Shown here in pieces: positions 14,934 to 42,917 of a stretch of 64,000 nt of DNA (positions are counted from its first letter, which is position 1; every line of letters begins with the position of its first letter). Made by a program: the position numbers and the translations under genes. Location of the stretch: assembly GCA_050331115.1 (NCBI GenBank), contig JBHJHD010000019.1, positions 67,390 to 131,389 on the forward strand, in the 5' to 3' direction. The notes beneath the pieces were generated by a model that was not told the origin of the DNA, did not search any database, and saw nothing but the letters and a program-made list of their open reading frames with translations. This stretch comes from Elainellaceae cyanobacterium. GTDB taxonomy: Bacteria > Cyanobacteriota > Cyanobacteriia > CAKZMO01.

Positions 14934-16286
14934 ATGCATATGAAAAATTCAGCTCAGCAGGCTCACCGAGTGGTTATTGTCGGCGGTGGTTTTGGCGGGC
15001 TTTACACGGCCAAGGCGCTGAAGAACGCGCCGGTAGATGTGACCCTGATCGATCGCCGCAACTTCCACCTGTTTCAGCCGCTGCTCTACCAAGTTGCCAC
15101 TGGCACCGTTTCCCCAGCCGACATTTCCTCTCCGCTGCGGGCCATCCTCAGCCACAACCGCAACACCAAGGTGCTCCTAGACGAAGTTGTCGACATCGAC
15201 CCCGAACAAAAGCAAGTGCTCTGTAAGCACGAGACCGTCCCCTATGACACCCTGATTATGGCCACCGGGGTGAGCCATCACTACTTCGGCAACGACCAGT
15301 GGCAAGAGCACGCCCCTGGCCTAAAGACTGTGGAAGATGCGCTGGAAATTCGCCGCCGCATTTTCATGGCTTTTGAGGCCGCCGAGAAGGAGTCTGACCC
15401 GGCGAAGCAGGCGGAATGGCTGACGTTTGTGATTGCGGGGGGTGGCCCCACCGGCGTGGAGCTGGCCGGGGCGATCGCTGAGCTGGCCTACAACATCCTG
15501 CCCCAGGACTTCCGCCGCATCGACACCCGCAAGTCGCGCGTGGTGCTGGTGGAAGGCATGGACCGCGTACTGCCCCCCTACGACCCATCGCTCTCCGAGC
15601 GGGCGGCCGAGTCGCTGCAGGGGCTAGGCGTTAGCGTGGTCACCGATTCCCTCGTTACCGACGTGCAGCCAGACCAGGTGACGCTGAAAAAGAAAGACGG
15701 CACCACCGAAACCATCGGCACGCGCACGGTGCTCTGGGCGGCTGGCGTCCGGGCCTCGAAGATGGGCAAGGTGCTCGCGTCTCGCACCGGCGCTGAGCTA
15801 GACCGGGCGGGCCGCGTGATGGTGGGACCGCGCTTGCACCTAGAAAACTACGACAGCGTCTTTGTAATTGGCGATCTGGCCCATGTGTCCCACCAGGGCG
15901 ATCGCCCGCTGCCGGGGGTCGCGCCCGTAGCCATGCAGGAGGCAAATTACGTGGCGAAGCTGGTTAAGCACCGCCTAGCCGGAAAGGCCGCCCCGGAGTT
16001 TCGCTATGTGGATCGCGGTAGCCTGGCGGTGATCGGCAAGAATGCCGCTGTGGTAGACCTAGGGTTCGTCAAGTTCTCGGGCTTCCTAGCCTGGCTGATC
16101 TGGATCTTTGCCCACATCTACTACCTGATTGAGTTTGACAATAAGCTGGTGGTAATGACGCAGTGGGCCTGGAGCTACTTTACGAGTAAGAGCGGCGCTC
16201 GCCTGATTACGGGACCTGAGGCGTTTAACCTGAGGCTGCCGACCGCGAATCAGACGGTGAAGGAGCGGGAGAAGACGCCTGCTTAG
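14934..16286 (+). CDS. type II NADH dehydrogenase (NDH-2)
   Basis: Two dinucleotide folds (VVIVGGGFGGLY; FVIAGGGPTGVELAG). NFHLFQPLLYQVATG and FVIGD motifs. C-terminal membrane-association helix. Confidence 0.9.
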   Translation: MHMKNSAQQAHRVVIVGGGFGGLYTAKALKNAPVDVTLIDRRNFHLFQPLLYQVATGTVSPADISSPLRAILSHNRNTKVLLDEVVDIDPEQKQVLCKHETVPYDTLIMATGVSHHYFGNDQWQEHAPGLKTVEDALEIRRRIFMAFEAAEKESDPAKQAEWLTFVIAGGGPTGVELAGAIAELAYNILPQDFRRIDTRKSRVVLVEGMDRVLPPYDPSLSERAAESLQGLGVSVVTDSLVTDVQPDQVTLKKKDGTTETIGTRTVLWAAGVRASKMGKVLASRTGAELDRAGRVMVGPRLHLENYDSVFVIGDLAHVSHQGDRPLPGVAPVAMQEANYVAKLVKHRLAGKAAPEFRYVDRGSLAVIGKNAAVVDLGFVKFSGFLAWLIWIFAHIYYLIEFDNKLVVMTQWAWSYFTSKSGARLITGPEAFNLRLPTANQTVKEREKTPA

Positions 16287-16562: not shown

Positions 16563-18350
16563 CTATTCGCCCACAGCTACCCCTTCAGCGGGGTTTGCCG
16601 CGCTGCTAGATTCGCGAAAGCTGTTCAAGCCCCCCGTGGGCCATCCTTTAAGCCAGACCCCAAACCAGTTGTAGTGACGGGCCGCTGCGATCGCCACAAA
16701 CAGCAGGTCCAGGCCCACTACCCCAGCGATTACCAGCGCCGACCCCCCGGTGCCAAAGCCGTAGCTGTGCAGCCCCGTTCCCAGCACGAAGTTCACCCCA
16801 TACCAGGCCATCAGCACCGCGTTGAACGACACCACGCTAGCCACATTGATGCCAAAATCCCCCATCCAGCCCGTCAGCCGGCTGTGGAGCGGTGCCAGGT
16901 AGCACAGGAGAGCAATCAGCGCCCAGGTCTCCTTGGGGTCCCAGCCCCAAAAGCGCCCCCAAGAGAAGTGGGCCCAGATACCGCCCAGGATAATGCCCGC
17001 CGTCAGCAGCAGCACCCCCACCTGCAGCACCCGGTAGTTGAGCTGGGACAGGGTTTTGAACCGCTTTTTTTCGGTGGGGGCAAACAGGTCGTTGCCCAGG
17101 GCGACGTGGCCTAATCCCAGCGCCAGGGCAAAGCTGGCGTAGCTGAGGGCGATGGTGGGCACGTGAATGCTAAGCCAGAAGTTGTCCCGCAGTACGGGCA
17201 CCAGAGGCGAAATGCTGGGGTCGAGGACGGCGGGCAGACTATCCGCCAGAATCAGGCAGACCATCGCCAGGGGAGCCGCCGCTAGCAGGTAGTAGCGGCT
17301 GCGGGAGGTGAGTTCAAACAGGAGGGCGATCGCCGCGATGCCAAAGCCCACCCACACCACCGACTCATACATGTTGGTCACCGGGGGCCGTCCGGCAATC
17401 TGCATGCGCAGGAAAAAGCCATAGCTCTGCACCCCGATACCCGCCGTAAATAGGCCGATGGCGCTCCAGTAGAGGTCCCAGGGTTTGACCCAGAGGGCTA
17501 CCAGCATGACGATGAATGCTAAGCCGTATAGCCACCAGGCCTTGGCAAAGGGGTGGAAGTGGTTGAAATGGACCTCTCGCGCCAGCACCGCGTCGGCAGG
17601 ATAAATCTCAGGACTGAGCTGCTGTAGGCTCGCCTTGAGGCCGTCCGCCAGCGGCCCCACCATGGGTAAATGGGTCGACCCACCCCCATCAGACAAACCA
17701 GCTAGCAAGGCCTGCTGCATCAGGGCAAACTGGGCCATCACCGGGGCGATCGCCTCCGGTGAGTAGAGCTGCGGCGCGGTGCCCAGTCCGGCCCACTTTC
17801 CCTTACTCTCGCTGGGGTGAGGCACCACGGGCAGGCTTTTGTCTCCCACGGCCTGATACAGCAGGTTCAGCCGGCCTTCGATGGTCAGCGCCTCTCGCTC
17901 GTCGCGGCTGAGGTCTACGCCCTCGGCATCTTTCTGGTGCGCCTGCCCCACGATCGCCCCCAGCCCTCGGTTGGCCATTAGCTCTTGAAAGGTGAACTGC
18001 TTGCGTTCTAGGTCTAGGTTCGCTGCCTCTTTCAGGGGACGATAGCTGACCAGCACTACGGGCTCTTCGTTCCAGTTGCGGGTGTTGAACCACATGCCCA
18101 GGTAGGCGGTGAGGTAGTCTTCTCTCTCAACAGTTTCACCGCTGGTGTGGCGGTAGGCGGTGGAGCCGTGGATTTTGGCGATCGTTTCTTTGGCGACGGT
18201 GTCGAGGGGCTTTTTGCGCCCGTCAAGCTGCACGGCCAGGGTACGCAGGCTATCGAGTCCGTCGGGCTGGAACTGGCTGAGGGGCAGCAGTAGCAGGATA
18301 CAGCCTAAACACAGGCCGACCAGGAATTTTATGATATTGATGCCTTTCAT
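16563..18350 (-). CDS. CcsA/ResC-like cytochrome c biogenesis protein (System II haem lyase subunit) with long N-terminal extension
   Basis: WWD box WGRFWGWDPKETW (nt 16923-16961). Conserved His contexts (WLSIH, APLHS, GLHSY). Polytopic C-terminal ~330 aa. ~260-aa extra N-terminal domain behind a signal anchor. Confidence 0.85.
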   Translation of the reverse strand: MKGINIIKFLVGLCLGCILLLLPLSQFQPDGLDSLRTLAVQLDGRKKPLDTVAKETIAKIHGSTAYRHTSGETVEREDYLTAYLGMWFNTRNWNEEPVVLVSYRPLKEAANLDLERKQFTFQELMANRGLGAIVGQAHQKDAEGVDLSRDEREALTIEGRLNLLYQAVGDKSLPVVPHPSESKGKWAGLGTAPQLYSPEAIAPVMAQFALMQQALLAGLSDGGGSTHLPMVGPLADGLKASLQQLSPEIYPADAVLAREVHFNHFHPFAKAWWLYGLAFIVMLVALWVKPWDLYWSAIGLFTAGIGVQSYGFFLRMQIAGRPPVTNMYESVVWVGFGIAAIALLFELTSRSRYYLLAAAPLAMVCLILADSLPAVLDPSISPLVPVLRDNFWLSIHVPTIALSYASFALALGLGHVALGNDLFAPTEKKRFKTLSQLNYRVLQVGVLLLTAGIILGGIWAHFSWGRFWGWDPKETWALIALLCYLAPLHSRLTGWMGDFGINVASVVSFNAVLMAWYGVNFVLGTGLHSYGFGTGGSALVIAGVVGLDLLFVAIAAARHYNWFGVWLKGWPTGGLNSFRESSSAANPAEGVAVGE

Positions 18351-18406: not shown

Positions 18407-20248
18407 TCATGACGGGCGGGTTTGGGCGCCGACCAATTGCGGCGTCGGTTCGGCGATCGCATCTTCAACCGCATCCTCCGATGGGACTTCGGGATGGGGG
18501 GCGGGTTTGCCGCCGCGCGATCGCTTCATTACTGCCGGACCGTAAAACATGGTGCCAACCCCTACCACCACCATCAGCGATCCGATCCAGGTCAGGGCCG
18601 TCACCCACCAGGGCTCCCGCTTCAGCTGTAGGGTCGACTGCTTTAGGTCACCGGGGTTCCAAGACGCCTGGGCCAGTTTCCAGCCGCGAAACCAGGTGGG
18701 GTGGTTCATCCACACCGAGCGTTGGGTGGCGGTGTCGGTTTTGGGGTCAAACAGGGTGATTCTGCTAGTCCACATGGCCACCGACTCGCTGCCTTCGTTG
18801 CGCTCTACGATGAAGTCGTCGAGCTTCACATAGAAGGGAAGCTGCAGCAGCTTAGGCGCAAAAGCGGCGAAGTATTCGCCTTGGGGCGTATCGAGGGCCA
18901 TGGGCTCGCCCCAGGGAAGCCAAAGGGCCTTGCCAGCATTACCTTTGCCAGCATTACCTCTGCCGCCGGCTGCGATCGCCACCTGCAGCGCCGGAAAGCC
19001 TTCGTTAGCCCCGGCCCCAGCCGCAGCGGGGGTTATGGGCACGACCTGCCGCCTCACCTGGGCGTGGTCCAGGCGATTGGCTAGGGAGATTTGGAAGTCG
19101 GCCCAGCCGGGGGCAATAACGTCACCAGGACGTAGCTCGCCCGAGCTAAAGCCCTTCGATGAGAGGGCTGCGTAGAACAGCTGACTATCGGGAGCCGCTA
19201 CGACGCGGAAATAGTCTGACGCCGTGGTGTCGGGCGCGGCATAGGTCGCCTCTAAATCAATCGCATCCCCAGAGCGCACGGGAGGTAGTCCTGGCTTTGC
19301 GAACACAAACCAGCGCTCTTGAGTCTCGTCTTGAGATACATTCACCTGCACCGCCGGGTTACGAAACGCGTTCGAAGCCGATGCTGGCTTACCCGACGTC
19401 AGGCGAAAGTCGGGCCACACCGCAACAATCTCGGCGGTGATGCCGCCCGGAAGCGACACAGACTGGCTTAATTTTTTCTCGATGTCGATGGTGCGATCGC
19501 CTAGCTGCAGCGTGCCATAGGTGGACTGGGACGAAGGCGGGCTGAGAAACTGCTTCAGCTCAACCTCGTCTGCCGCCTGCCGCAGCTCTAGGCGCGCCGG
19601 CCCAATGTCCATCTGGCCATAGCCCAGGGGAGCCAGCGCCAGCCAGCGCTCTAGGGTCTGCCCCATGCGATCGCTGCGGAGCCGCAGCTGCACCGCTAGA
19701 TTCTCGGCGGCTGGACCCTTCGCGCTGTCCCCCTCGACGAAGCGCACCGTCTTAGTGGCGCGATCGCTGTAGCCCAGAAGTGAGAGTCCGGCGAACCGTG
19801 AGGGATGCACCGAGCCATCGGGCTTGACGAAAATATCGGTCTGGCGACGCGTCTGGTCTGGCGACGCCACCTCCAGCAGGTCGCCCTCCACGCGAATCTG
19901 ATTGCCGGGGCCGCTGTCGGTGCGTACTAGCAGCATGCCTTCGGTGCTGAGATGAATGACGGCGGCGGACCCCGCAATAATAATGATCAAACCCCAGTGG
20001 GTGATAGCGAAGCCCACCTTGCGGGGGCCGCGCCAGGGATAGCGGCTGAGGGTGGAAACGCCTAGGTTAACCGCCAGTAAAAACATTAGCCCGCCAAACC
20101 AGGCGCTCTTGTAAATTTCTCTTTGAACCGTGGCGGAGCCGACGTTCGACTCATAGAAAGTCGCGCCAATTAGAATGATGGCGATCGCCACAATAAGCGG
20201 AACTGCTAGGCGAATTGAGCCTAAAAAACGAATAGCCTTGGGGGGCAT
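18407..20248 (-). CDS. ResB/CcsB-like cytochrome c biogenesis protein
   Basis: ResB-like architecture: N-terminal TM pair with conserved His (FAITHWGLIIIIAG), large soluble domain, and a C-terminal FYVKLDDFIVE...W.NHP...KLAQASW...REPWW + TM segment. Confidence 0.8.
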   Translation of the reverse strand: MPPKAIRFLGSIRLAVPLIVAIAIILIGATFYESNVGSATVQREIYKSAWFGGLMFLLAVNLGVSTLSRYPWRGPRKVGFAITHWGLIIIIAGSAAVIHLSTEGMLLVRTDSGPGNQIRVEGDLLEVASPDQTRRQTDIFVKPDGSVHPSRFAGLSLLGYSDRATKTVRFVEGDSAKGPAAENLAVQLRLRSDRMGQTLERWLALAPLGYGQMDIGPARLELRQAADEVELKQFLSPPSSQSTYGTLQLGDRTIDIEKKLSQSVSLPGGITAEIVAVWPDFRLTSGKPASASNAFRNPAVQVNVSQDETQERWFVFAKPGLPPVRSGDAIDLEATYAAPDTTASDYFRVVAAPDSQLFYAALSSKGFSSGELRPGDVIAPGWADFQISLANRLDHAQVRRQVVPITPAAAGAGANEGFPALQVAIAAGGRGNAGKGNAGKALWLPWGEPMALDTPQGEYFAAFAPKLLQLPFYVKLDDFIVERNEGSESVAMWTSRITLFDPKTDTATQRSVWMNHPTWFRGWKLAQASWNPGDLKQSTLQLKREPWWVTALTWIGSLMVVVGVGTMFYGPAVMKRSRGGKPAPHPEVPSEDAVEDAIAEPTPQLVGAQTRPS

Positions 20249-20698
20249 AGCGATCTCAATAGATTGAGGGTCATTTACTCACTTTTAGAGCTTTACTTGG
20301 AAACATTTGCAGCCTTTGATACAAAATCGAAATTTAGGCATTCAGAATTCGCATCTAAAAGTACACAAATTGCATGACTTCTTTGAGCTTCTGGGTGCTC
20401 AGATGGGTGCTCAGAAGGCGCATTCAATATTTACATCAAAGCTATGCAGTATTTGAGAATAAAAGTTGAAAAGCGTATTTGATTTTACAAAAGTACAGGA
20501 GCTATCTATCTATGGTCAGATTTGAGAAGCGCACCTTTACTATGACTTTTAAAGAGCTTAAGGATTTCCCCAACAGCTTCTGTAAGCGATTCTAGAGGCT
20601 ATTTTTGTCTTGCCTTAATTGCTGTGGGATGCGTTAGGTGTCGAATTTGACAGTTGAGGGATGGCCGTTTTTCTAAAGTCTATTCAGGCTAATCCCAC

Positions 20699-20740
20699 GT
20701 CAGCCAAGGTGTTAATAAAGTCAGCCAAGGCATTAATAAA
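20699..20740. repeat. 21-nt tandem repeat x2 in the divergent ccsB/globin spacer
   Basis: GTCAGCCAAGGTGTTAATAAA / GTCAGCCAAGGCATTAATAAA, about 100 nt upstream of the globin start. A 12-nt x2 repeat TGGGTGCTCAGA is at 20392-20415. Confidence 0.85.
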
Positions 20741-20839
20741 TTTGATTATGGGTTGCGATAGGCCATGTTAAAAGGCCGCAGGCTTATGCCTTTATGCATT
20801 GATATCTGTTGAATCTAAACGTTACTTAGGAAGGCAAAA

Positions 20840-21874
20840 ATGGTTTCAAATATCGATCAAAAAGCGGCGCTAAAGGTTGAGCTTTTAGAGCAAAGCTTTG
20901 AAAAAGTGAAGCCCCACGCCAACGACTTTGCAGCGAGCTTCTACGAGAACCTGTTTGTAGATTATCCGGCAGCTGAGCCGCTGTTTGCCGAAACGGATGT
21001 GGCAGCTCAGAGTAAAAAGCTGCTGGCATCTCTTGTGTTTGTGGTTGAGAACTTGCGTAACCCCGGTGCGCTGACGGGTGCCCTAAAGGGTTTAGGGGCT
21101 CGCCACGTGGAATACGGTGCGCTGCCCGCCCACTATCCCCTAGTCGGGAATACGCTACTCAAGACCTTCGATCAGTACTTAGGCGCTGACTGGACCCCTG
21201 AGACCCAACAGGCCTGGACTGAAGCCTACGGCGTGATCACCGAGACCATGCTTGAAGGGGCTGATTACGCCGAAGAAGACGTGCAGCTTGCGCCGCCTCC
21301 CGCCGAGGTAGACGAAGCCACCGGGCTAAAGGTTGGCCTTTTGGAGCAGAGCTTCGAGAAGGTGAAGCCCCATGCAAATGAGTTTGCGATCAGCTTCTAC
21401 GAGAATTTGTTTGCGGACTACCCGGCCGCCAAGCCGCTGTTCGCGCAAACGGACGTGACGGCACAGAGCAAAAAGCTGCTGGCGTCCCTCGTGTTTGTGG
21501 TTGAGAACTTACGTAAGCCGGGTGAGCTAACCGGCGCGCTAAAAGGGCTGGGCGCTCGCCACGTTCAGTATGGTGCCTTGCCTGAGCACTACCCTCTAGT
21601 GGGCAGCAGCTTGCTAAAGACTTTTGATCAGTACCTCAAAGGCGACTGGACCCCCGAAGTCGAGCAAGCCTGGATTGACGCCTACGGCCTGATCACTGAG
21701 GTGATGCTAGAAGGGGCCGACTACTCTCCAGAAGCGGTGCAGCTTAGCCCCGTGGCCGCACCCAGCTCTACTCCTGCTGCCCCTACTGCCGAAGCTGGCC
21801 TCAAGGCGGGCCCGCTACTGGGTGGGCTAATTGGCGGTGGCGCGGTGCTGCTTGTCATCCTGCTGCTGCTTTAG
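20840..21874 (+). CDS. tandem two-domain globin with C-terminal transmembrane tail
   Basis: Two ~140-aa 3-on-3 globin-like units (SFYENLF... QSKKLL ... LGARHV.YG). By my manual alignment, 116/140 residues are identical between units. Ends in a GPLLGGLIGGGAVLLVILLLL hydrophobic tail. No signal peptide. Confidence 0.8.
   Translation: MVSNIDQKAALKVELLEQSFEKVKPHANDFAASFYENLFVDYPAAEPLFAETDVAAQSKKLLASLVFVVENLRNPGALTGALKGLGARHVEYGALPAHYPLVGNTLLKTFDQYLGADWTPETQQAWTEAYGVITETMLEGADYAEEDVQLAPPPAEVDEATGLKVGLLEQSFEKVKPHANEFAISFYENLFADYPAAKPLFAQTDVTAQSKKLLASLVFVVENLRKPGELTGALKGLGARHVQYGALPEHYPLVGSSLLKTFDQYLKGDWTPEVEQAWIDAYGLITEVMLEGADYSPEAVQLSPVAAPSSTPAAPTAEAGLKAGPLLGGLIGGGAVLLVILLLL
20870..21745 (+). repeat. 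intragenic tandem duplication (2 x 456-nt period) encoding the two globin domains
   Basis: Unit 1 is 20870-21289 and unit 2 is 21326-21745. The units are clearly alignable at nucleotide level, with many synonymous differences. Confidence 0.9.
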
Positions 21875-21912: not shown

Positions 21913-22593
21913 ATGGCATCTCGAGGTCGATCCAACAGGCAACCTAGGCAACAGCGATCGCAAGCTGGCGGCAGAGGCCGTTCGCTCATCAGCTTAAGAA
22001 CGGCGATCGCTGTTGCCTGCATCGTTCTGGTGGGCTGGTTCTCGGCAGCCTTTGCCCTAGATAATAAGCAGGCTTTCTTACCGGGGGAGACCTCTGTAGG
22101 TCACTACCTCGTAGAAGCCTCCTGTAGCTCCTGTCACGAGGGATTCAAGCCCGTCAGCAACGACACCTGCATGCGCTGCCACGAAGCCGAGCTAGCCCAA
22201 GATGCCCACGGCCCTAAGAAGTTCATGGACCCCCGCTGGGCGGGCGAGCTAGCCGAGATTGAGGCGCTGACCTGCACCACCTGCCATAACGAGCATGTGC
22301 ATATGTTTGGCCGGGGGGTGCACCTGCAGCCCGACCTCTGTATGACCTGTCACGAGGGGATCATTAGCGGCGAGCTGAAGAGCCACGACGGCTTCACTCC
22401 AGACGGCTGCTGGACCGCTGGCTGCCACAACTACCACGACCACCGCACGATTTCCACCGGGTTTCTGAGGAAAAACCTCGACCAGCCCCCCATGCTGCCG
22501 GTGCAGGTTGTCCCAGAGCGCGTTGTAACAACGGAGCTAGAGACACCTCCAGCAGCGGATTTAGGCGAGGAGTTTCTGGGAGGTGAGACATGA
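21913..22593 (+). CDS. membrane-anchored multihaem cytochrome c (4 CXXCH + 1 CX4CH)
   Basis: CSSCH(71-75), CMRCH(86-90), CTTCH(121-125), CMTCH(143-147), CWTAGCH(166-172). Arg-rich N-terminus followed by one TM helix. Confidence 0.85.
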   Translation: MASRGRSNRQPRQQRSQAGGRGRSLISLRTAIAVACIVLVGWFSAAFALDNKQAFLPGETSVGHYLVEASCSSCHEGFKPVSNDTCMRCHEAELAQDAHGPKKFMDPRWAGELAEIEALTCTTCHNEHVHMFGRGVHLQPDLCMTCHEGIISGELKSHDGFTPDGCWTAGCHNYHDHRTISTGFLRKNLDQPPMLPVQVVPERVVTTELETPPAADLGEEFLGGET

Positions 22594-23432
22594 CGGTAAA
22601 TAAGCGGCTTGTCGTGTCCTGTCTATTGGCTCTGGCGCTGCTGCTGGGCTGGGCTACCCCGGCCTGGGGCGATAGGACCGGAGACGCGGTGGACCAGGCC
22701 GCATTGGATGAAACCACTCAGCTTTGGAAAACCAGCGCCCACGCCCTCAACGACATCAACTGCTCTAGCTGCCACCAAGACGAAGAGACCAAGGCGTTTG
22801 TGGCCGACCCCACTTACGAGAGCTGCCAATCCTGCCACGAGCAGTCGGTAGACACCTTTCTGCTGGGTAAGCACGGCATTCGCTTACTCGAAGACGAGTC
22901 TCCCCTGATGCCCGCCATGGCGCGACTGCCCATGAAGCAGGCTGCCCACGACCTGCAGATGACCTGCAGCACCTGCCACGATGCCCACTCGGTGAACACC
23001 GTCCAGGCCGCCGTCGACTCCTGCCTCACCTGCCACAACGACACCCACTCCCTCAACTACGAAAACTCCCAGCACGCCCAGCTGTTCGCCGCCGACCTGG
23101 TAGAGCTGCCTCGGCCCTCCGGCCCAGGGCTGCCCCGGCCCTCCGGCAGCGCGGTGAGCTGCGCCACCTGCCACCTGCCGCGCCACGAGGTGGAGACGGG
23201 CGGCGAGACGGTGACCCTGGTCAACCACAACAACACCTACACCCTGCTGCCCCGCGATCGCATGGTGGGAGAGGTGTGCATGAACTGCCACGGCGTGGAG
23301 TACAGCTACAACAGTATTTTTGACGATGACCTGGTGGAGGCCAACTTCGATGCGCCGCCCACCCTATCCCTTGAGACCTTCGACCTAGTTCGCGCCCTCG
23401 AAGAGCGGCGAGCCGGTCAAGAAGGCGAATAG
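22590..23432 (+). CDS. secreted hexahaem cytochrome c
   Basis: Signal peptide (LALALLLGWATPAWG/D). CSSCH(58), CQSCH(79), CSTCH(126), CLTCH(145), CATCH(191), CMNCH(230). ATG overlaps the previous stop (ATGA). Confidence 0.85.
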   Translation: MTVNKRLVVSCLLALALLLGWATPAWGDRTGDAVDQAALDETTQLWKTSAHALNDINCSSCHQDEETKAFVADPTYESCQSCHEQSVDTFLLGKHGIRLLEDESPLMPAMARLPMKQAAHDLQMTCSTCHDAHSVNTVQAAVDSCLTCHNDTHSLNYENSQHAQLFAADLVELPRPSGPGLPRPSGSAVSCATCHLPRHEVETGGETVTLVNHNNTYTLLPRDRMVGEVCMNCHGVEYSYNSIFDDDLVEANFDAPPTLSLETFDLVRALEERRAGQEGE

Positions 23433-23561
23433 GCTCCGTCAAATCCAGCGTTCGCTCAGACGAACTTTTCTGCTCACAAGGCTTCCTCGCTTTATATTCC
23501 GGAAGCCTCGCAAACGCTCTCACAACGACCTAACGCACGTATTGAACCCAAGGACACAACC

Positions 23562-24218
23562 ATGACAATGCTAGAGAACTGGATCAGCGCTATCCGCACC
23601 CGAACGGTGGCGTTCATTGCTATCATTTTGGCCGTCGCCGTGACGGCGATCTCTTGCAGCGGTGGCGGTACCGCCACCACCGAGGCATCCGCTGGCGTCG
23701 CCCCTGAGCTGGTGGCCGACTATATTCACACCGTGCTGGCGGCTGACCGCACCGCCTACACCAAGCACGTGGTCAACCGCGTCAAAACTCTAGAGGGTAA
23801 GGCTAAAGAGGCGGGCGTGCTTGAGGTGGAATCCACTGAGGGCTGGCAGCAGACGGACGGTATTCCCCTGCCGGCGCAGATGTTCCGCCTAGGCTCTGAG
23901 ATCGCCAACGACTCGGGCTACTTCACCTACAACCTGATCTCGCCCTGGTATATCAATGACAGCCACGCCCCCAAAGGCGAGTTTGAGGAGACTGCCGTCC
24001 AAGCCATGATCGATACGGGCGAACCCGTCAAGGAATATCAGGAGATCAGCGGTCAAACCTACTTCTCCGCGATGTATCCCGACAACGCCGTGGCAGAAGC
24101 CTGCGTCAGCTGCCACAATACTCACCCTGTTCACCTGGAGCGCTACCCCGATAAGCAGTTCGTGATGGACGAAGTGATGGGCGGCATTGTGATCAACATT
24201 CCGCTAGAGGGCGCTTGA
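23562..24218 (+). CDS. DUF3365/Tll0287-like c-type haem lipoprotein
   Basis: Lipoprotein-like signal (VAVTAISC/SGGG). A single CVSCH (aa 181-185, nt 24102-24116) near the C-terminus, in the context YPDNAVAEACVSCHNTHP that I recall as typical of the Tll0287 PAS-like haem c family. Confidence 0.7.
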   Translation: MTMLENWISAIRTRTVAFIAIILAVAVTAISCSGGGTATTEASAGVAPELVADYIHTVLAADRTAYTKHVVNRVKTLEGKAKEAGVLEVESTEGWQQTDGIPLPAQMFRLGSEIANDSGYFTYNLISPWYINDSHAPKGEFEETAVQAMIDTGEPVKEYQEISGQTYFSAMYPDNAVAEACVSCHNTHPVHLERYPDKQFVMDEVMGGIVINIPLEGA

Positions 24219-24310: not shown

Positions 24311-25027
24311 ATGAGCACCCCTCATCCCCACTCTCCACCGAATCTCCAGACATCGGCACTCACCACACACACCGATGAAGCGCCCCCTCTAGTAGAGCAG
24401 CCGCTCACCGCAAAAGCGCCCCGTCCTCGGGGCATTCAGCCCAGCCTCAAAGTGCTGATCGGCCTCACCTTACTGACGGCGCTGCTGCTGCTGCCCTTCG
24501 CCTTTAGCGCCATCTACCTCGACCGGCTGCGGGAAGAATCCGTAGAACTGCACCGGTTTATGCGCGGGGAACTATACAAGCAGGGGACCGGCTATGCAGC
24601 CTTGGGCTTTGTGCTGCTAGAGGTCATGCTCAGCGTCCGCAAGCGCAGCCGCAGCTGGATTGGCCGCATCAAGCTGCCGGGGTCGATGCAGCTGTGGCGC
24701 AGCGTTCATGTTTTCCTAGGGGTGGGGCTGGTGGCCATGGTGCTGGTCCACACACTGGGGTCCAACGGCCTCAACTTTAACGCGGCGCTGCTGTGGGTGT
24801 TCTTTGCCACAACGCTAACGGCGCTGGTGGGCGTAGTAGCCGAAACCGGCATTCTAGAGTCCACCCGCAGCTACTTTGGCAAGCTGCCCTGGAGCCCGGT
24901 CCCGCTCACCAAAGGCCCCTTAATTCGAGGGCTGCGATCGCTCTGGCTGGTGAGCCATATCTTCTTTGTCTGCGTGTTCGCCGTGATGCTGGCGTTTCAC
25001 GTTGCCTTGGCGTATTACTACCAGTAA
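24311..25027 (+). CDS. 5-TM membrane protein, predicted dihaem b-type cytochrome (ferric-reductase-domain-like)
   Basis: Five hydrophobic helices. His133-X13-His147 in predicted TM3 and His216-X13-His230 in predicted TM5. Function is inferred from the His spacing only. Confidence 0.6.
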   Translation: MSTPHPHSPPNLQTSALTTHTDEAPPLVEQPLTAKAPRPRGIQPSLKVLIGLTLLTALLLLPFAFSAIYLDRLREESVELHRFMRGELYKQGTGYAALGFVLLEVMLSVRKRSRSWIGRIKLPGSMQLWRSVHVFLGVGLVAMVLVHTLGSNGLNFNAALLWVFFATTLTALVGVVAETGILESTRSYFGKLPWSPVPLTKGPLIRGLRSLWLVSHIFFVCVFAVMLAFHVALAYYYQ

Positions 25028-25230: not shown

Positions 25231-25704
25231 ATGGCTACAGAGCGATTTGATTTGGAGAAAAACCGAGCCAGCTGGATTGTAGCTGCGCTCGTGGGGCTGT
25301 TTGCGATCGCCGCTGTTGTTGTGACGCGCCCAGACGGGTCATCGCCGAGTCTTTCAGCAGTGTCGGGGCTAATGAGCTTGAAGGCTACGGCCCAAGCGGC
25401 AATGCCCTACGACATCGCCATGGCCGATCCAAAACCCACCCTAGTCGAGTTCTATGCTGACTGGTGCACCACCTGTCAGGCCCTAGCGCCAACCCTGCAG
25501 GACATCCACGAGCAGGCAGGCGATCAGATCAATTTCGTCATGCTGGATATTGACGATCCCCAGTGGCGACAGCAGGTCAATCAGTTTCAGGTCAGCGGTG
25601 TTCCTCACCTAGCGCTGCTAGATTCAAGCCACGTCGTTGCAGACAGCTTTGTAGGGCGCGTTCCCCGACAAGTCTTAGTGGCTCGCATTGCCGACCTGCT
25701 TTAG
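25231..25704 (+). CDS. membrane-anchored thioredoxin-like protein (TxlA/CcsX/ResA-like)
   Basis: N-terminal TM anchor, then a thioredoxin fold with a WCTTC active site (aa 78-82; cysteines C79/C82) and a downstream GVP cis-Pro motif. Confidence 0.8.
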   Translation: MATERFDLEKNRASWIVAALVGLFAIAAVVVTRPDGSSPSLSAVSGLMSLKATAQAAMPYDIAMADPKPTLVEFYADWCTTCQALAPTLQDIHEQAGDQINFVMLDIDDPQWRQQVNQFQVSGVPHLALLDSSHVVADSFVGRVPRQVLVARIADLL

Positions 25705-25732: not shown

Positions 25733-25963
25733 ATGGCAATACTGCATCGATTTCTTCTATTGCTAGAGTTTCTAGATCGGCTCATCGACATCGCTGAGGC
25801 TTCAGCCGATTCGCTCACCGCGCCAGTCGCCACTGCCGCTGCGGCCTGTCTGCTGAGCTATCAGGCGCTGCTGCTTGCGGGCTGTGATGTCCTGTCCTCA
25901 GCGGTCCTCTCCAGCGCGATCGCCCTGGCGTTAAACTGTGGATTCAACCACCCCAATACTTAA
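25733..25963 (+). CDS. small hypothetical protein (76 aa)
   Basis: ATG 25733 is preceded by AGGAGG at 25718-25723. The stop overlaps the ChaN-like start (TAATG). No recognisable family. Confidence 0.4.
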   Translation: MAILHRFLLLLEFLDRLIDIAEASADSLTAPVATAAAACLLSYQALLLAGCDVLSSAVLSSAIALALNCGFNHPNT

Positions 25964-26883
25964 TGCGCCCAATCCAACGCGCCCAACTTAACGTGCCTAT
26001 GACAGTTCCCGTGTCCCGCTGGCGTCTCGGCTGTAGTGCCTTAAGCATTGCCCTGCTGCTCACGGTTCCAGCGGCCTGCTCAATCGCCGATGAGCTGCCT
26101 ACGGCTAGCGTCCCGCTAACCCTGTCTAGCGAAGCGGCGGATCTTGCCCCCCTACTCGTGGACGTGGTTTACCTTGGAGAACGCCACGACAGCGCCGAAG
26201 ACCACGCTGCCCAGCTGGAGATCATCCAGGCGCTCTACGCCGAGGACCCCAACATGGCGATCGCCCTGGAGATGTTTCAGCGCCCGTTTCAGCCTGTGCT
26301 CGATCGCTACCTGGCGGGGGAAATCTCGGAGGCGGCGCTGGTGGCCCAAAGCGAATACGAGCAGCGCTGGGGCTTCCCCTGGGAATATTACGCCCCTATC
26401 CTGCAGTTTGCCCAGGCCCACCAGCTTCCCGTGCTGGCCCTCAACGCCCCCAGCGAGGTGGTGCGACAGGTGGCGCGGGAAGGCCTTGGGAGTCTGCAGG
26501 AGCAAGACTTTCGCTACATTCCGCCGCTGGATCAGCTCGATACCAGCGGCGCTGAGTATCGAGAATTCGTCGGGGCGGCATTTGGCGGCCACGGCGACCA
26601 CGGCAGCTTCGATTTCGAAAATTTCTTTGCCGCCCAGGTCGTATGGGACGAAACGATGGCGGCCACCGTTGCGTCGTTCAAGCGGGCCTCACCGGAGACG
26701 CGGGTGGTGGTGCTGGCAGGTAGCGGCCACGTCATGTACGGCTACGGCATCCCCAGCCGAGTGGCCCGGCGTTTAGAAGGACAGGTGGGCGAGCCCCTGC
26801 AGCAAACGACGGTGCTCATCAATCCGCCGGAGGCGCTAGCGGCGTCGGAGGATGCCGCAGATGTCTTTTGGCGTAGCGAGTAG
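25963..26883 (+). CDS. ChaN-like haem-binding lipoprotein (Cofac_haem_bdg/Tiki-type fold)
   Basis: Signal with lipobox-like TVPAAC. VVYLGERHDSAEDHAAQLEII, IALEMFQRPFQPVLDRY and LPVLALNAP resemble the ChaN/PF04187 family. Confidence 0.7.
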   Translation: MRPIQRAQLNVPMTVPVSRWRLGCSALSIALLLTVPAACSIADELPTASVPLTLSSEAADLAPLLVDVVYLGERHDSAEDHAAQLEIIQALYAEDPNMAIALEMFQRPFQPVLDRYLAGEISEAALVAQSEYEQRWGFPWEYYAPILQFAQAHQLPVLALNAPSEVVRQVAREGLGSLQEQDFRYIPPLDQLDTSGAEYREFVGAAFGGHGDHGSFDFENFFAAQVVWDETMAATVASFKRASPETRVVVLAGSGHVMYGYGIPSRVARRLEGQVGEPLQQTTVLINPPEALAASEDAADVFWRSE

Positions 26884-27365: not shown

Positions 27366-28649
27366 GTGATAAAAGGGGGTTTTTCCCCAACTTTCGTAAC
27401 TACGGTAACTTCTGTGACTGCAAAATCAGAGATTAGTGGCTCCTCAGACCACAGCGATGCCCATCACATTGCCCGCAGCGCTCTAGATGGTTCAATCGAT
27501 CGCCAGCTTAGCGCCTACGACTACCATCTCCCTGAGGCCTGCATTGCCCAGCATCCCGCCTCTCCCCGCGATCGCTCTCGGCTGCTGGTGGTTGACGGCC
27601 CGACAGGCTGCCGTCACCAAACCTTTTGCGATCTGCCGCAGTGGCTGCGGGCGGGCGACCTGCTGGTGCTCAACAATACCCGGGTAATTCCGGCGCGGCT
27701 TATAGGCCGCAAGGCCAGCGGCCTTGCCGTAGAGGTGTTTTTACTGGAGGAGCGAGGGCCTGACTGCTGGCACGCCCTCGTTAAGCCGGGTAAGCGGCTA
27801 AAGCCCGGTGTTGAAGTCTATTTTGATGGACTCAATGCTCCTCTCAATACACCGACTGATGCACGGGCTACTGGTTCACCGGTTAGCAGCTCACCAGCTG
27901 TCGTTGGCGAAGTCCTAGCTGTAGAGCCAGCCACCGGAGGGCGATTGATTAAGTTTAGGGTTCCCGATAAGCGGCCGTTTCGCTCACTGCTGCCCCAGCT
28001 GGGGCAGGTGCCGCTCCCCCCTTATATCACCAGCACTGACGTTGGGGCAGAGCGGTATCAGACGGTCTACGGCGATCGCCCTGGTGCGGTGGCCGCGCCC
28101 ACCGCGGGCCTGCACTTTACCCCAGAGCTGCTCCAGACCTTAGAGGCCATGGGTGTGGGCGTGGCGACGCTGACGCTGCACGTGGGCATCGGAACCTTTC
28201 GCCCGGTGGAGCGTGAAGACATTGCGGCCCACAAAATGCACGGTGAGTGGATTGAGGTAACGCCGGCGGTGGTCGCTGCGGTTCAGCAGACGCGGGCGCG
28301 GGGTGGGCGGGTGATCGCGGTGGGAACCACCAGCGTTCGCGCCCTAGAGGGAGCCGCGCAGGGCGAAACGCTGCAGCCCTACTGCGGCCAAACCAGCATC
28401 TTCATCTATCCGGGCTACCGCTGGCGGGTCATCGACGGCCTGATCACCAATTTCCACCTGCCCAAATCCAGCCTGATGATGATGGTGAGCGCCCTAATTG
28501 GCCGTCAGCGCCTGCTGGATCTCTATCAGCTGGCGATCGCCCAGGCCTACCGGTTTTACTCTTTTGGCGACGCGATGCTAATTCTGCCCGAAGCCCAGCT
28601 GCCCGAAGCCCAGCTGCCTGAAGCCCAGCTGCCCAACGCTCAGCTCTAG
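27366..28649 (+). CDS. queA: S-adenosylmethionine:tRNA ribosyltransferase-isomerase
   Basis: YDYHLPEACIAQHP, LLVLNNTRVIPARL, PLPPYI, AAPTAGLHFT, VGTTSVRALE and FYSFGDAML motifs. Start is uncertain (GTG 27366 or 27414). The C-terminus carries a 15-nt x4 repeat (PEAQL). Confidence 0.92.
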   Translation: MIKGGFSPTFVTTVTSVTAKSEISGSSDHSDAHHIARSALDGSIDRQLSAYDYHLPEACIAQHPASPRDRSRLLVVDGPTGCRHQTFCDLPQWLRAGDLLVLNNTRVIPARLIGRKASGLAVEVFLLEERGPDCWHALVKPGKRLKPGVEVYFDGLNAPLNTPTDARATGSPVSSSPAVVGEVLAVEPATGGRLIKFRVPDKRPFRSLLPQLGQVPLPPYITSTDVGAERYQTVYGDRPGAVAAPTAGLHFTPELLQTLEAMGVGVATLTLHVGIGTFRPVEREDIAAHKMHGEWIEVTPAVVAAVQQTRARGGRVIAVGTTSVRALEGAAQGETLQPYCGQTSIFIYPGYRWRVIDGLITNFHLPKSSLMMMVSALIGRQRLLDLYQLAIAQAYRFYSFGDAMLILPEAQLPEAQLPEAQLPNAQL

Positions 28650-28660
28650 GGTTTAGGGGA

Positions 28661-29623
28661 TCAGGCCAGCACCTCTAGGGTGCCGCGATCGCCGTCGAGC
28701 TGCGCCGTCGAGCCTATGGGTAGAGCTGCGTTGGGGCCGTCGTGGCCGAAGGGCAAACCTGACACCACGGGAATGCCTAAGTCCCCCAGGCGATCGCGCA
28801 GCACTTCACCTACCGTGAAGCTGGGCCGATTCCCTGAGGGGTCACAGCGGCTAAAGCGCCCTAGGGCAACGCCGCTCAAAGTCCGCAGCGCGCCCGTCAT
28901 GCGCCAGTAGGTCAGCATACGGTCGAGCCGGTAGGGGGCCTCAGACACATCTTCTAACGCTAAGATTACGCCGGTTAAGTCGGGCTGGTGGGGGGTGTTG
29001 AGGAGATGGGTCGCTACCGTAAGGTTGGCGGGCATCAGCCGGCCCCGCGCCGTTCCCCCGCCCCAGCCCTGCCCCGTCAGCGGTGGAATTGGCCGCCCGG
29101 CGACCCAGTCAAACAGGCGCTGGGCCGACCATTCGGGCTCCTGGGCTAGCGTCGTGAGCAGCGGGCCATGGACCCCGTAGACCGCTTCTTGGCAGGCGGC
29201 GCTCCACAGCAGGCTCGTCACATCTGAAAATCCGATCAGCCACGGTCGATGGGGATAGGCCTCAGAAGAGGCTTGAGGCGGCGCTTGAGACGGCGCTTGA
29301 GACGGTATTTGCGGCCAGCGCCAGGTTTCCAAAAGCCGCGTCCCACCGTAGCCGCCCCGGGCGCAGAGGATGCCGCAGCAGCTAGGGTCGGTCATTGCGC
29401 GCCGAAGCTGGTCTCGCCTGTGGCGATCGCTGCCGGCCAAATATCCCCAGCCCTGGTCATAGCCCGGGGTTAGCCCGATCTCGTAGCCTTGGGCCCGCCA
29501 CAGCGCTACCCCCGCCTCAAAAGCCTGGCGCTCCTGCAGCACGCCGCTGGGGGCAATTACGGTGAGGCGATCGCCGGGCCGGAGCGGCCTGCCGCAGTCA
29601 TTCCCTGCCATACCCGTTGCCAA
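28661..29623 (-). CDS. LD-carboxypeptidase (S66 family, LdcA/MccF-like)
   Basis: PGDRLTVIAPSG, CARGGYGGTRLL, catalytic-Ser context GFSDVTSLL, then EDVSEAPYRLDRML and GLPFGHDGPN. Internal 12-nt x3 repeat insert (SQAP). Confidence 0.85.
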   Translation of the reverse strand: MATGMAGNDCGRPLRPGDRLTVIAPSGVLQERQAFEAGVALWRAQGYEIGLTPGYDQGWGYLAGSDRHRRDQLRRAMTDPSCCGILCARGGYGGTRLLETWRWPQIPSQAPSQAPPQASSEAYPHRPWLIGFSDVTSLLWSAACQEAVYGVHGPLLTTLAQEPEWSAQRLFDWVAGRPIPPLTGQGWGGGTARGRLMPANLTVATHLLNTPHQPDLTGVILALEDVSEAPYRLDRMLTYWRMTGALRTLSGVALGRFSRCDPSGNRPSFTVGEVLRDRLGDLGIPVVSGLPFGHDGPNAALPIGSTAQLDGDRGTLEVLA

Positions 29624-42443: not shown

Positions 42444-42917
42444 CTAGGACACCTTAATCAGCACGCGATCGCCGTCAATCTTAGCTTCGTAGGTCGGCAG
42501 CGGCTCCGACGCCGGCCCCTCAGTTACGCTGCCGTCAGGGGCAAACTTAGAGCCGTGGCAGGGGCAGGCGAACGCCTCGCCATCCCAGTCGACGGTGCAG
42601 CCCTGGTGGGTACAGAGGGTGTTCACCGCCATCACGCCCCCGGATGAACCCTGAACGACGGCCACCTGTTCGCCCTGGAAATTTTGGCTGGAAATGCTGC
42701 CCTCCTCTAGCTCGGAGACCGTACCGATTGCGGAGAAGCCTGCCGCGTCTGGGGTAGACTCTAGCTCTGCAGAAGCCGTGCCGCCCGCTGCAGATGGAGT
42801 ATCAGACGATGCGGTGCCAGACGATGCGGTATCAGACTTGCAGGCGGCGATCGCGACGGGCAGCGAGCTTGCCAAGAGACCAAAGCCGATCCAGTTTACA
42901 AATTCACGTCGTTTCAT
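42444..42917 (-). CDS. small Rieske [2Fe-2S] protein with Tat/lipoprotein-type signal (PetC3-like)
   Basis: RREF twin-Arg-like N-terminus with an AIAAC lipobox. Rieske boxes CTHQGC and CPCHGS. Confidence 0.85.
   Translation of the reverse strand: MKRREFVNWIGFGLLASSLPVAIAACKSDTASSGTASSDTPSAAGGTASAELESTPDAAGFSAIGTVSELEEGSISSQNFQGEQVAVVQGSSGGVMAVNTLCTHQGCTVDWDGEAFACPCHGSKFAPDGSVTEGPASEPLPTYEAKIDGDRVLIKVS

Follow-up and report, generated by a model that had tools for sequence, protein, structure and literature searches.

Within a 64,000-nucleotide stretch of an Elainellaceae cyanobacterium genome (contig JBHJHD010000019.1, positions 67,390 to 131,389 of the forward strand; hereafter the window), two overlapping open reading frames (ORFs) encode a pentahaem and a hexahaem c-type cytochrome. 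According to our analysis, this pair appears to represent multihaem electron-transfer cytochromes of hydroxylamine oxidoreductase (HAO) ancestry, encoded in an apparently undescribed gene cluster. A preliminary description of the locus had dealt with the two cytochromes; around this pair there is a far larger set of conserved genes, of which it forms only the core, and this goes beyond what was seen there. We consider it reasonably probable that the two proteins are the halves of an eleven-haem electron wire facing the periplasm or the thylakoid lumen, within a membrane-bound electron-transfer module. The elements of the pair are the following:

21913-22593, plus strand: pentahaem c-type cytochrome of 226 amino acids (translated ORF).
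22590-23432, plus strand: hexahaem c-type cytochrome of 280 amino acids (translated ORF).
22590-22593, plus strand: ATGA overlap of the pentahaem stop and the hexahaem start, four nucleotides shared.
23106-23153, plus strand: tandem duplication LPRPSGPG/LPRPSGSA in the hexahaem, in the loop between haem sites 4 and 5.

Translation confirmed the haem sites reported in the preliminary description. The pentahaem carries C71SSCH, C86MRCH, C121TTCH and C143MTCH, together with a CX4CH site, C166WTAGCH (nucleotides 22408-22428), and the hexahaem has six CXXCH motifs, at C58, C79, C126, C145, C191 and C230. This number is far above chance: with cysteine and histidine at the frequencies of the window's other 50 ORFs, 506 residues would be expected to hold 0.0011 CXXCH, and these ORFs (17,346 residues) contain none. 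Both proteins match the Pfam model Cytochrom_c3_2 (PF14537), with 29.7 bits for the pentahaem and 41.6 bits for the hexahaem against a cut-off of 25. Judged by their sequences, the two ORFs are real, conserved multihaem c-type cytochromes, with covalent haem predicted. A Shine-Dalgarno-like GGGAGG lies 13 nucleotides upstream of the pentahaem ATG. The ATGA overlap was found as described, an arrangement indicative of translational coupling, and 74 of 81 cyanobacterial loci show a four-nucleotide overlap of this kind (ATGA or GTGA).

By profile comparison, the hexahaem is a remote HAO-family scaffold, in which the six haems match HAO haems 2, 3, 5, 6, 7 and 8; the HAO haem numbers follow the motif order. 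The hhalign comparison of the hexahaem profile with Nitrosomonas HAO, identical in sequence to PDB 4FAS chain A, gave a probability of 96% and an E-value of 2e-9. Sites 1-5 of the hexahaem paired with HAO motifs 2, 3, 5, 6 and 7, and the fourth HAO motif, CTMCH, fell in a six-residue gap of the hexahaem alignment. The family profile also matched Kuenenia HOX (4N4J, E = 6e-10), NrfA and the octahaem nitrite reductases (ONR), in each case via the hexahaem half; the hidden Markov model alignment to Kuenenia HOX covered all six hexahaem sites, site 6 corresponding to the last HAO motif. Foldseek searches with AlphaFold models, which had been suggested earlier as a check, led from the confident hexahaem model (predicted local distance difference test, pLDDT, 91.3) to a single significant match, the Brocadia HAO-like protein 6T5E (E = 6.7e-5), and from the pentahaem model to none. 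Matches of the pentahaem to ActA (6BTM) and to 9YUQ_N were weak and, per stretch, not significant, and they were set aside. The HAO family has been described as having CX2-4CH motifs, and its catalytic haem, haem 4, is five-coordinate (PMC8042395).

Conserved histidines outside the haem motifs agree in number with the haems. Exactly five are invariant or near-invariant in the pentahaem (H64, H99, H128, H158 and H175), and exactly six are invariant in the hexahaem (H51, H95, H133, H153, H162 and H213). These counts fit eleven bis-histidine (bis-His) haems with no open catalytic site, and all eleven haems are probably ligated in this manner. The additional histidines of the hexahaem had already been proposed as distal ligands, and the six invariant candidates, one per haem, fit that proposal. 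The comparison with electron-wire cytochromes made in the same description is likewise in line with the conservation of five and six distal histidines and with the HAO family's catalytic haem having been lost.

The haem sites are conserved well beyond the window. All 120 closest pentahaem homologues (66-85% identical), whose named members are all cyanobacterial, have four CXXCH motifs and the CX4CH site, which reads CWTAGCH in 112 of them, and the 120 closest hexahaem homologues all keep six CXXCH motifs. An exhaustive search of 1.84 billion representatives yielded 329 relatives. Among the distant representatives in which site 5 could be located (n = 117), it is CX4CH in 102 and CXXCH in 15, and CX4CH is kept in 118 of 118 homologues in which the two cytochromes are fused. 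The site follows the consensus C-x-x-[AGS]-G-C-H, then N-Y/F-H-D, at one fixed position, that of haem 5. The preliminary description had made its CX4CH assignment dependent on the conservation of these cysteines in homologues, and the assignment withstood the comparison. A scan for the motif [AG]GCHN[YF]HD in 185,579 species genomes gave at least 593 relatives; the best 80 loci were fetched, and all of these came from cyanobacteria or from metagenome-assembled genomes (MAGs) with the same cluster. The carriers include Acaryochloris marina MBIC11017, Leptolyngbya sp. PCC 7375, Xenococcus sp. PCC 7305, Moorena bouillonii and Prochloron.

A 100% database match to the hexahaem is named "cytochrome c3 family protein [Elainellaceae cyanobacterium]". 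Genes nearby likewise indicate a cyanobacterial source, namely the Tll0287-like gene, the System II genes and one resembling that for light-dependent protochlorophyllide reductase (see below). For the exact pentahaem sequence, the protein collection held no match of at least 90% identity, the best being 85%; the pentahaem gene may be unannotated or differently annotated in the source assembly. The eight-residue duplication LPRPSGPG/LPRPSGSA of the hexahaem, already noticed earlier, is real, its two 24-nucleotide copies being identical at 19 of 24 positions. This insertion is private to this genome, all aligned relatives having a single LPRPSG, and the loop that contains it (hexahaem residues 171-180) is poorly modelled (pLDDT 62).

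In many other bacteria the two cytochromes are a single protein. Exactly 11 haem motifs, in 389-831 residues (median 450), were found in 50 of the 150 best family representatives, and 20 of the 150 carry five motifs only. When one fused member was used as the query, 120 proteins were obtained, 116 of them with 11 motifs; the named fused homologues belong to Verrucomicrobiota. The N-terminal half of the fused proteins matches the pentahaem and the C-terminal half the hexahaem. The existence of the pair as one undecahaem polypeptide elsewhere supports a physical complex, and the pentahaem and hexahaem probably form one; a complex had been proposed from the gene overlap, and the single protein of about 450 residues in other phyla now gives that proposal independent backing. 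Furthermore, residues 61-151 of the pentahaem and residues 48-153 of the hexahaem are homologues (hhalign probability 96.5%), and the eleven-haem protein thus originated in the duplication of a four-haem module.

Based on the 80 fetched cyanobacterial loci, with gene order judged as far as each contig reaches, the cluster has an invariant order: tandem globin, pentahaem, hexahaem, Tll0287-like protein, dihaem-b protein and, usually, thioredoxin. Besides the pair, the window contains these genes of the cluster and its surroundings:

20840-21874, plus strand: tandem globin with two VHb/Hmp-type domains (Pfam Globin, E = 3.7e-40).
23562-24218, plus strand: Tll0287-like (DUF3365, Cache-haem) protein with one CVSCH (PF11845, E = 7.6e-19).
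24311-25027, plus strand: predicted dihaem-b membrane protein with two invariant H-x13-H pairs, H133/H147 and H216/H230.
25231-25704, plus strand: membrane-anchored thioredoxin-like protein (Pfam Thioredoxin, E = 1.1e-18).
25963-26883, plus strand: ChaN-like haem-binding protein (PF04187, E = 7.9e-71).
42444-42917, minus strand: small Rieske [2Fe-2S] lipoprotein-like protein, with the signal …VAIAAC and the motifs CTHQGC…CPCHGS.

The tandem globin gene stands directly upstream of the pentahaem gene wherever the contig reaches. Its product matches the NCBIfam flavohaemoprotein globin region (E = 1.6e-39), keeps the proximal histidines, and has no signal peptide and a hydrophobic C-terminal tail (residues 326-344); it is predicted to be tethered at the cytoplasmic face of the membrane. 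The Tll0287-like protein scores 69 bits against PF11845 (cut-off 24.1), its CXXCH is invariant, and it is a predicted lipoprotein with an invariant lipobox Cys32. No cysteine was found in it beyond the signal peptide, the lipobox Cys32 and the CXXCH, and hence none that might act as the distal Cys in a His/Cys axial ligation like that of Tll0287. The 24311-25027 product is predicted to be a dihaem b-type cytochrome with five transmembrane segments, four of them detected by a hydropathy scan and the fifth (residues ~92-108) by reading the sequence; its H-x13-H pairs are the classic signature of two stacked b haems. It matched no curated family above the cut-off in Pfam or NCBIfam, and a phmmer search of the PDB with this protein and the Tll0287-like protein gave no usable match.

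The thioredoxin-like gene was found in 61 loci, with an invariant WCxxC in its product, which probably reduces the apocytochrome cysteines in a ResA/CcsX-like role. The ChaN-like gene is an optional accessory, present in 16 loci only. A Rieske homologue adjoins the gene for a CcsA-like protein (CcsA2, see below) in 47 other loci; the copy in the window lies 20 kb away, and its membership of the system here is uncertain. Two side observations concern the cluster itself. An extra single-domain globin gene (~175 residues), absent from the window, stands between the dihaem-b and thioredoxin genes in L002 (12542-13069), L006, L009, L012, L016, L072, L077 and L082, and the cluster occurs twice, on separate contigs, in each of two MAGs, Cyanobacteria bacterium J06639_14 (L007/L013) and Phormidesmis sp. 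SGMAG-04 (L029/L083).

Upstream of the globin operon, on the opposite strand, lie two genes for a further part of the system:

18407-20248, minus strand: divergent ResB/CcsB-like protein (ResB2) of 613 amino acids (partial Pfam ResB, PF05140, 54 bits).
16563-18350, minus strand: divergent CcsA/ResC-like protein (CcsA2) of 595 amino acids (PF01578, 114 bits).

In terms of domain content, ResB2 and CcsA2 are the two halves of a System II cytochrome c synthase, and NCBIfam scores set them apart from the housekeeping copy: ResB2 has no NCBIfam match, and CcsA2 lies below the TIGR03144 equivalog cut-off (164 vs 187.6). CcsA2 is the sole ORF of the window with a WWD motif and has an N-terminal extension of about 300 residues. 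ResB2 is linked to the cluster within ~10 kb in 65 loci and CcsA2 in 62, in four different arrangements, and this survival of the linkage through rearrangement argues for a functional tie. The CX4CH site was considered as the sole reason for the extra synthase and set aside, because CX4CH relatives in other phyla occur without a dedicated pair; a cyanobacteria-specific need, e.g., a heavy multihaem load or a different membrane, is more likely. An NDH-2-like flavoprotein gene (Pyr_redox_2 + NDH2_C; 14934-16286, plus strand) adjoins CcsA2, which is probably coincidental; NDH-2 was rejected as a partner, since the gene is conserved in this position in no other fetched locus.

The topology of the two cytochromes bears on how the pair is held at the membrane. 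The Arg-rich N-terminus of the pentahaem is followed by one hydrophobic helix of roughly 19 residues (residues ~28-49, nucleotides ~21994-22059), which was originally read as an uncleaved anchor. The helix is present, and it may or may not stay uncleaved. The fused relatives have no AxA site after their N-terminal helix, which suggests a signal anchor, and the cyanobacterial pentahaems keep AAFA/LD at the end of the helix, which makes cleavage by signal peptidase possible. The hexahaem has the cleavable-looking signal peptide described before (residues 1-27, nucleotides 22590-22670), ending in ATPAWG27/D.

A compact multihaem domain behind a membrane helix, together with a soluble multihaem protein as partner in the manner of NrfH/NrfA or cM552/c554, would also be expected if the pentahaem were a quinol dehydrogenase of the NapC/NirT/NrfH/CymA type that passes electrons from plastoquinol to the hexahaem. 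We regard this as unlikely, because the pentahaem has no match to PF03264 (NapC/NirT) in Pfam or NCBIfam, its helix may be a cleaved signal, and a separate conserved dihaem-b protein is always present, fused to a flavoprotein in other phyla.

[quoted passage not shown] However, the hexahaem has six motifs instead of the eight of the HAO family, the motif of the catalytic haem 4 is deleted, and there are six invariant non-motif histidines for its six haems. It contains no CXXCK motif, and it lacks the C-terminal domain that in HAO bears the Tyr cross-linked to haem 4: the hexahaem ends ~45 residues past haem 6, whereas HAO runs on for ~140 residues past haem 8. A catalytic role of this kind is therefore improbable.

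Nine non-cyanobacterial neighbourhoods were examined for the context of the fused gene. A Tll0287-like gene follows the undecahaem gene in all nine. The dihaem-b protein is encoded by a small separate gene in L003, L005, L086 and probably L089 (the last by position only), and in L004, L087 and L088 the dihaem-b domain extends the C-terminus of a Pyr_redox_2/Rubredoxin_C/Fer2_BFD flavoprotein, as a fusion whose gene lies directly upstream; L090 has the same flavoprotein architecture by Pfam, the membrane domain aside. An H-NOX gene is adjacent in two of the nine loci, as is a globin gene in two, and genes for a nitrate-type ABC transporter, cyanase, sirohaem nitrite/sulfite reductase or molybdopterin oxidoreductase are adjacent in three. 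A porin-like Alginate_exp gene precedes the flavoprotein and undecahaem genes in L087 (3121-4536) and L090 (2560-3933), and could hint at an outer-membrane partner in these lineages.

The porin-like gene in these two loci, together with a haem density like that of wire cytochromes, weak matches to the MtrC/MtrF and DmsE families and the ChaN-like haem/iron protein adjacent in 16 loci, might indicate a conduit to metal outside the cell, for extracellular electron transfer or reductive iron uptake. Such a role does not seem likely to us: the cyanobacterial cluster contains no conserved outer-membrane porin-cytochrome partner, the Mtr and DmsE matches all fall far under the family cut-offs, and ChaN is found in a minority of loci. 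That the two ORFs are what is left, in decay or without expression, of a cluster gained by horizontal transfer, as the lack of a pentahaem match of at least 90% identity beside the 100% hexahaem match and the private LPRPSG duplication might suggest, is very hard to reconcile with the intactness of both ORFs, which keep every invariant family residue, with the synteny and start/stop overlap conserved across the cyanobacterial loci, and with a GC content that matches the flanking DNA and gives no indication of foreign origin.

We therefore return to the eleven-haem wire. The pentahaem would be held at the membrane by its N-terminal helix, and the hexahaem, exported and freed of its signal peptide, would dock onto it; coupled translation through the ATGA overlap would supply the two proteins in roughly equal amounts. 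All eleven haems, including that of the CX4CH site, would be attached by the cluster's own ResB2, CcsA2 and membrane thioredoxin. The wire would link the dihaem-b protein with five transmembrane segments, which may carry electrons across or into the membrane, to the lipid-anchored Tll0287-like haem-c protein. The cytoplasmic partner of the dihaem-b protein in cyanobacteria would be the tethered tandem globin, probably, or quinol, and in some other phyla the NAD(P)H flavoprotein to which the dihaem-b domain is joined. Our analysis shows the haem motifs with their conservation, the fused homologues, the HAO homology with its missing haem-4 motif, the conserved gene order and the domain fusions; that the two proteins bind each other, how the haems are ligated, which way electrons flow and what the substrate is are inferences.

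The physiological role may lie in the handling of nitric oxide or another nitrogen oxide, which is our leading guess and a tentative one. It was suggested by the recurrence of H-NOX, globin and nitrite-assimilation genes nearby, by the descent of the scaffold from HAO, and by the properties of the Tll0287 family, in which Cache-haem signalling members bind nitric oxide and stand-alone members look redox-active, with redox roles proposed (PMC12889525). More broadly, it is possible, if still doubtful, that the cluster encodes an as yet undescribed membrane redox pathway of many marine and mat-forming cyanobacteria and many other bacteria, in which a dihaem-b protein fed by NAD(P)H, quinol or the tethered globin would pass electrons along a 12-haem extracytoplasmic chain (five, six and the Cache-haem lipoprotein) to a small-molecule acceptor, e.g., nitric oxide. 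In cyanobacteria this pathway would be built by a second, dedicated synthase, possibly working in a different membrane from the photosynthetic one.

Several observations weigh against the eleven-haem wire and the role proposed for it. The TM-score of the hexahaem to the HAO-like 6T5E is just 0.46 in Foldseek. The pentahaem model has moderate confidence (pLDDT 76.5), and no PDB relative of the pentahaem was found with the single sequence, the profile of the N-terminal half or Foldseek, the matches being at the level of motifs at most. The bis-His assignment comes from the counting of conserved histidines and not from coordinates. The non-cyanobacterial clusters have the same CX4CH without a dedicated ResB/CcsA pair, the cyanobacterial clusters have no flavoprotein and hence no evident electron source, and the nitrogen-oxide link, drawn from the nine non-cyanobacterial neighbourhoods, is circumstantial.

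One further element concerns the regulation of the cluster:

20249-20839: AT-rich intergenic region between ResB2 and the globin operon (590 bp, GC about 0.44 vs about 0.6 around).

This region presumably holds promoters. A k-mer search of 53 upstream regions revealed no convincing shared site upstream of the globin operon, promoter- or terminator-like sites in the region are no commoner than in shuffled sequence, and an Rfam scan of the whole window gave no match. A weak terminator-like hairpin with a T-run lies 18 nucleotides past the hexahaem stop (23450-23465, plus strand); such sites are likewise no commoner than in shuffled sequence. Elsewhere in the neighbourhood, we observed a gene resembling that for light-dependent protochlorophyllide reductase (translation judged by eye), a QueA-like protein (27366-28649, plus strand) with a C-terminal tandem peptide repeat LPEAQLPEAQLPEAQLPNAQL beyond its Pfam domain, and an LD-carboxypeptidase-like protein (28661-29623, minus strand) whose two Pfam domains are separated by a low-complexity insertion (…PSQAPSQAPPQASSEA…).

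To our knowledge, the well-studied cyanobacterial c-type cytochromes are single-haem proteins. Besides a maturation system of its own, the cluster brings together 12 c-type haem sites, two globin haems and, probably, two b haems. Its strict conservation across at least 80 cyanobacterial species, among them the cultured strains A. marina MBIC11017 and Leptolyngbya sp. PCC 7375, points to a branch of electron transport in cyanobacteria that is still unstudied. It offers a view of the fate of an HAO-type scaffold after the loss of its catalytic haem, bears on the partner and role of the stand-alone Tll0287-like haem proteins, and raises the question of why a System II organism needs a second synthase. 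Should the nitric oxide link prove right, the cluster would also bear on how phototrophic mats cope with nitrogen oxides. Database records call the proteins nothing more specific than "cytochrome c3 family protein" or "hypothetical", and in the literature that we searched, neither a multihaem cluster of cyanobacteria nor an undecahaem/Tll0287/dihaem-b module was described.

Among known systems, the HAO family (4FAS, 4N4J, 6T5E) is related to the hexahaem by detectable homology, with six motifs aligned with HAO haems 2, 3, 5, 6, 7 and 8. The hexahaem differs from it in having six and not eight haems, without the catalytic haem 4, haem 1 and the C-terminal Tyr domain, and this loss suggests that the pair is probably an electron carrier only. 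The cM552/c554 cytochromes of ammonia oxidisers, NrfH/NrfA and NrfB are membrane-held and soluble periplasmic multihaem partners with bis-His low-spin haems. Our pair resembles cM552/c554 and NrfH/NrfA in combining a membrane-held multihaem protein with a soluble multihaem partner, but here there is no NapC/NirT/NrfH match, the membrane link is apparently the separate dihaem-b protein, and no catalytic partner was found. Class III cytochromes c3 share the presence of CX4CH sites, a well-established variant of the haem-binding motif, and Pfam c3-type models match both the pentahaem and the hexahaem; our proteins, however, are much larger and have their own strict CX4CH signature at haem 5.

The gene downstream of the pair belongs to the same family as the Tll0287/Cache-haem proteins, with the CXXCH kept, but the subfamily of the cluster is a predicted lipoprotein without a candidate for the distal Cys. 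The Tll0287-family papers that we examined do not mention an invariable pairing of Cache-haem proteins with an undecahaem cytochrome. A likeness to the flavocytochromes b of the NOX and ferric reductase type is seen in L004, L087 and L088, where a flavoprotein is joined to a membrane domain with two His pairs for stacked b haems; this membrane domain matched no curated family above the cut-off, and the cyanobacteria have it as a protein on its own, without a flavoprotein in the vicinity.

Finally, dedicated System II synthases are known to be encoded beside special cytochromes, as with the CcsA isoenzymes of Wolinella. The uet cluster of Tenderiales contains an undecahaem gene and its own ccsAB, its UetJ having eleven plain CXXCH motifs and a predicted extracellular location (bioRxiv 10.1101/2022.05.06.490989). 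As a multihaem cluster with its own ResB/CcsA pair, it is in concept the nearest analogue of the cluster described here, which differs in its CX4CH site and carries its extra synthase in cyanobacteria only.

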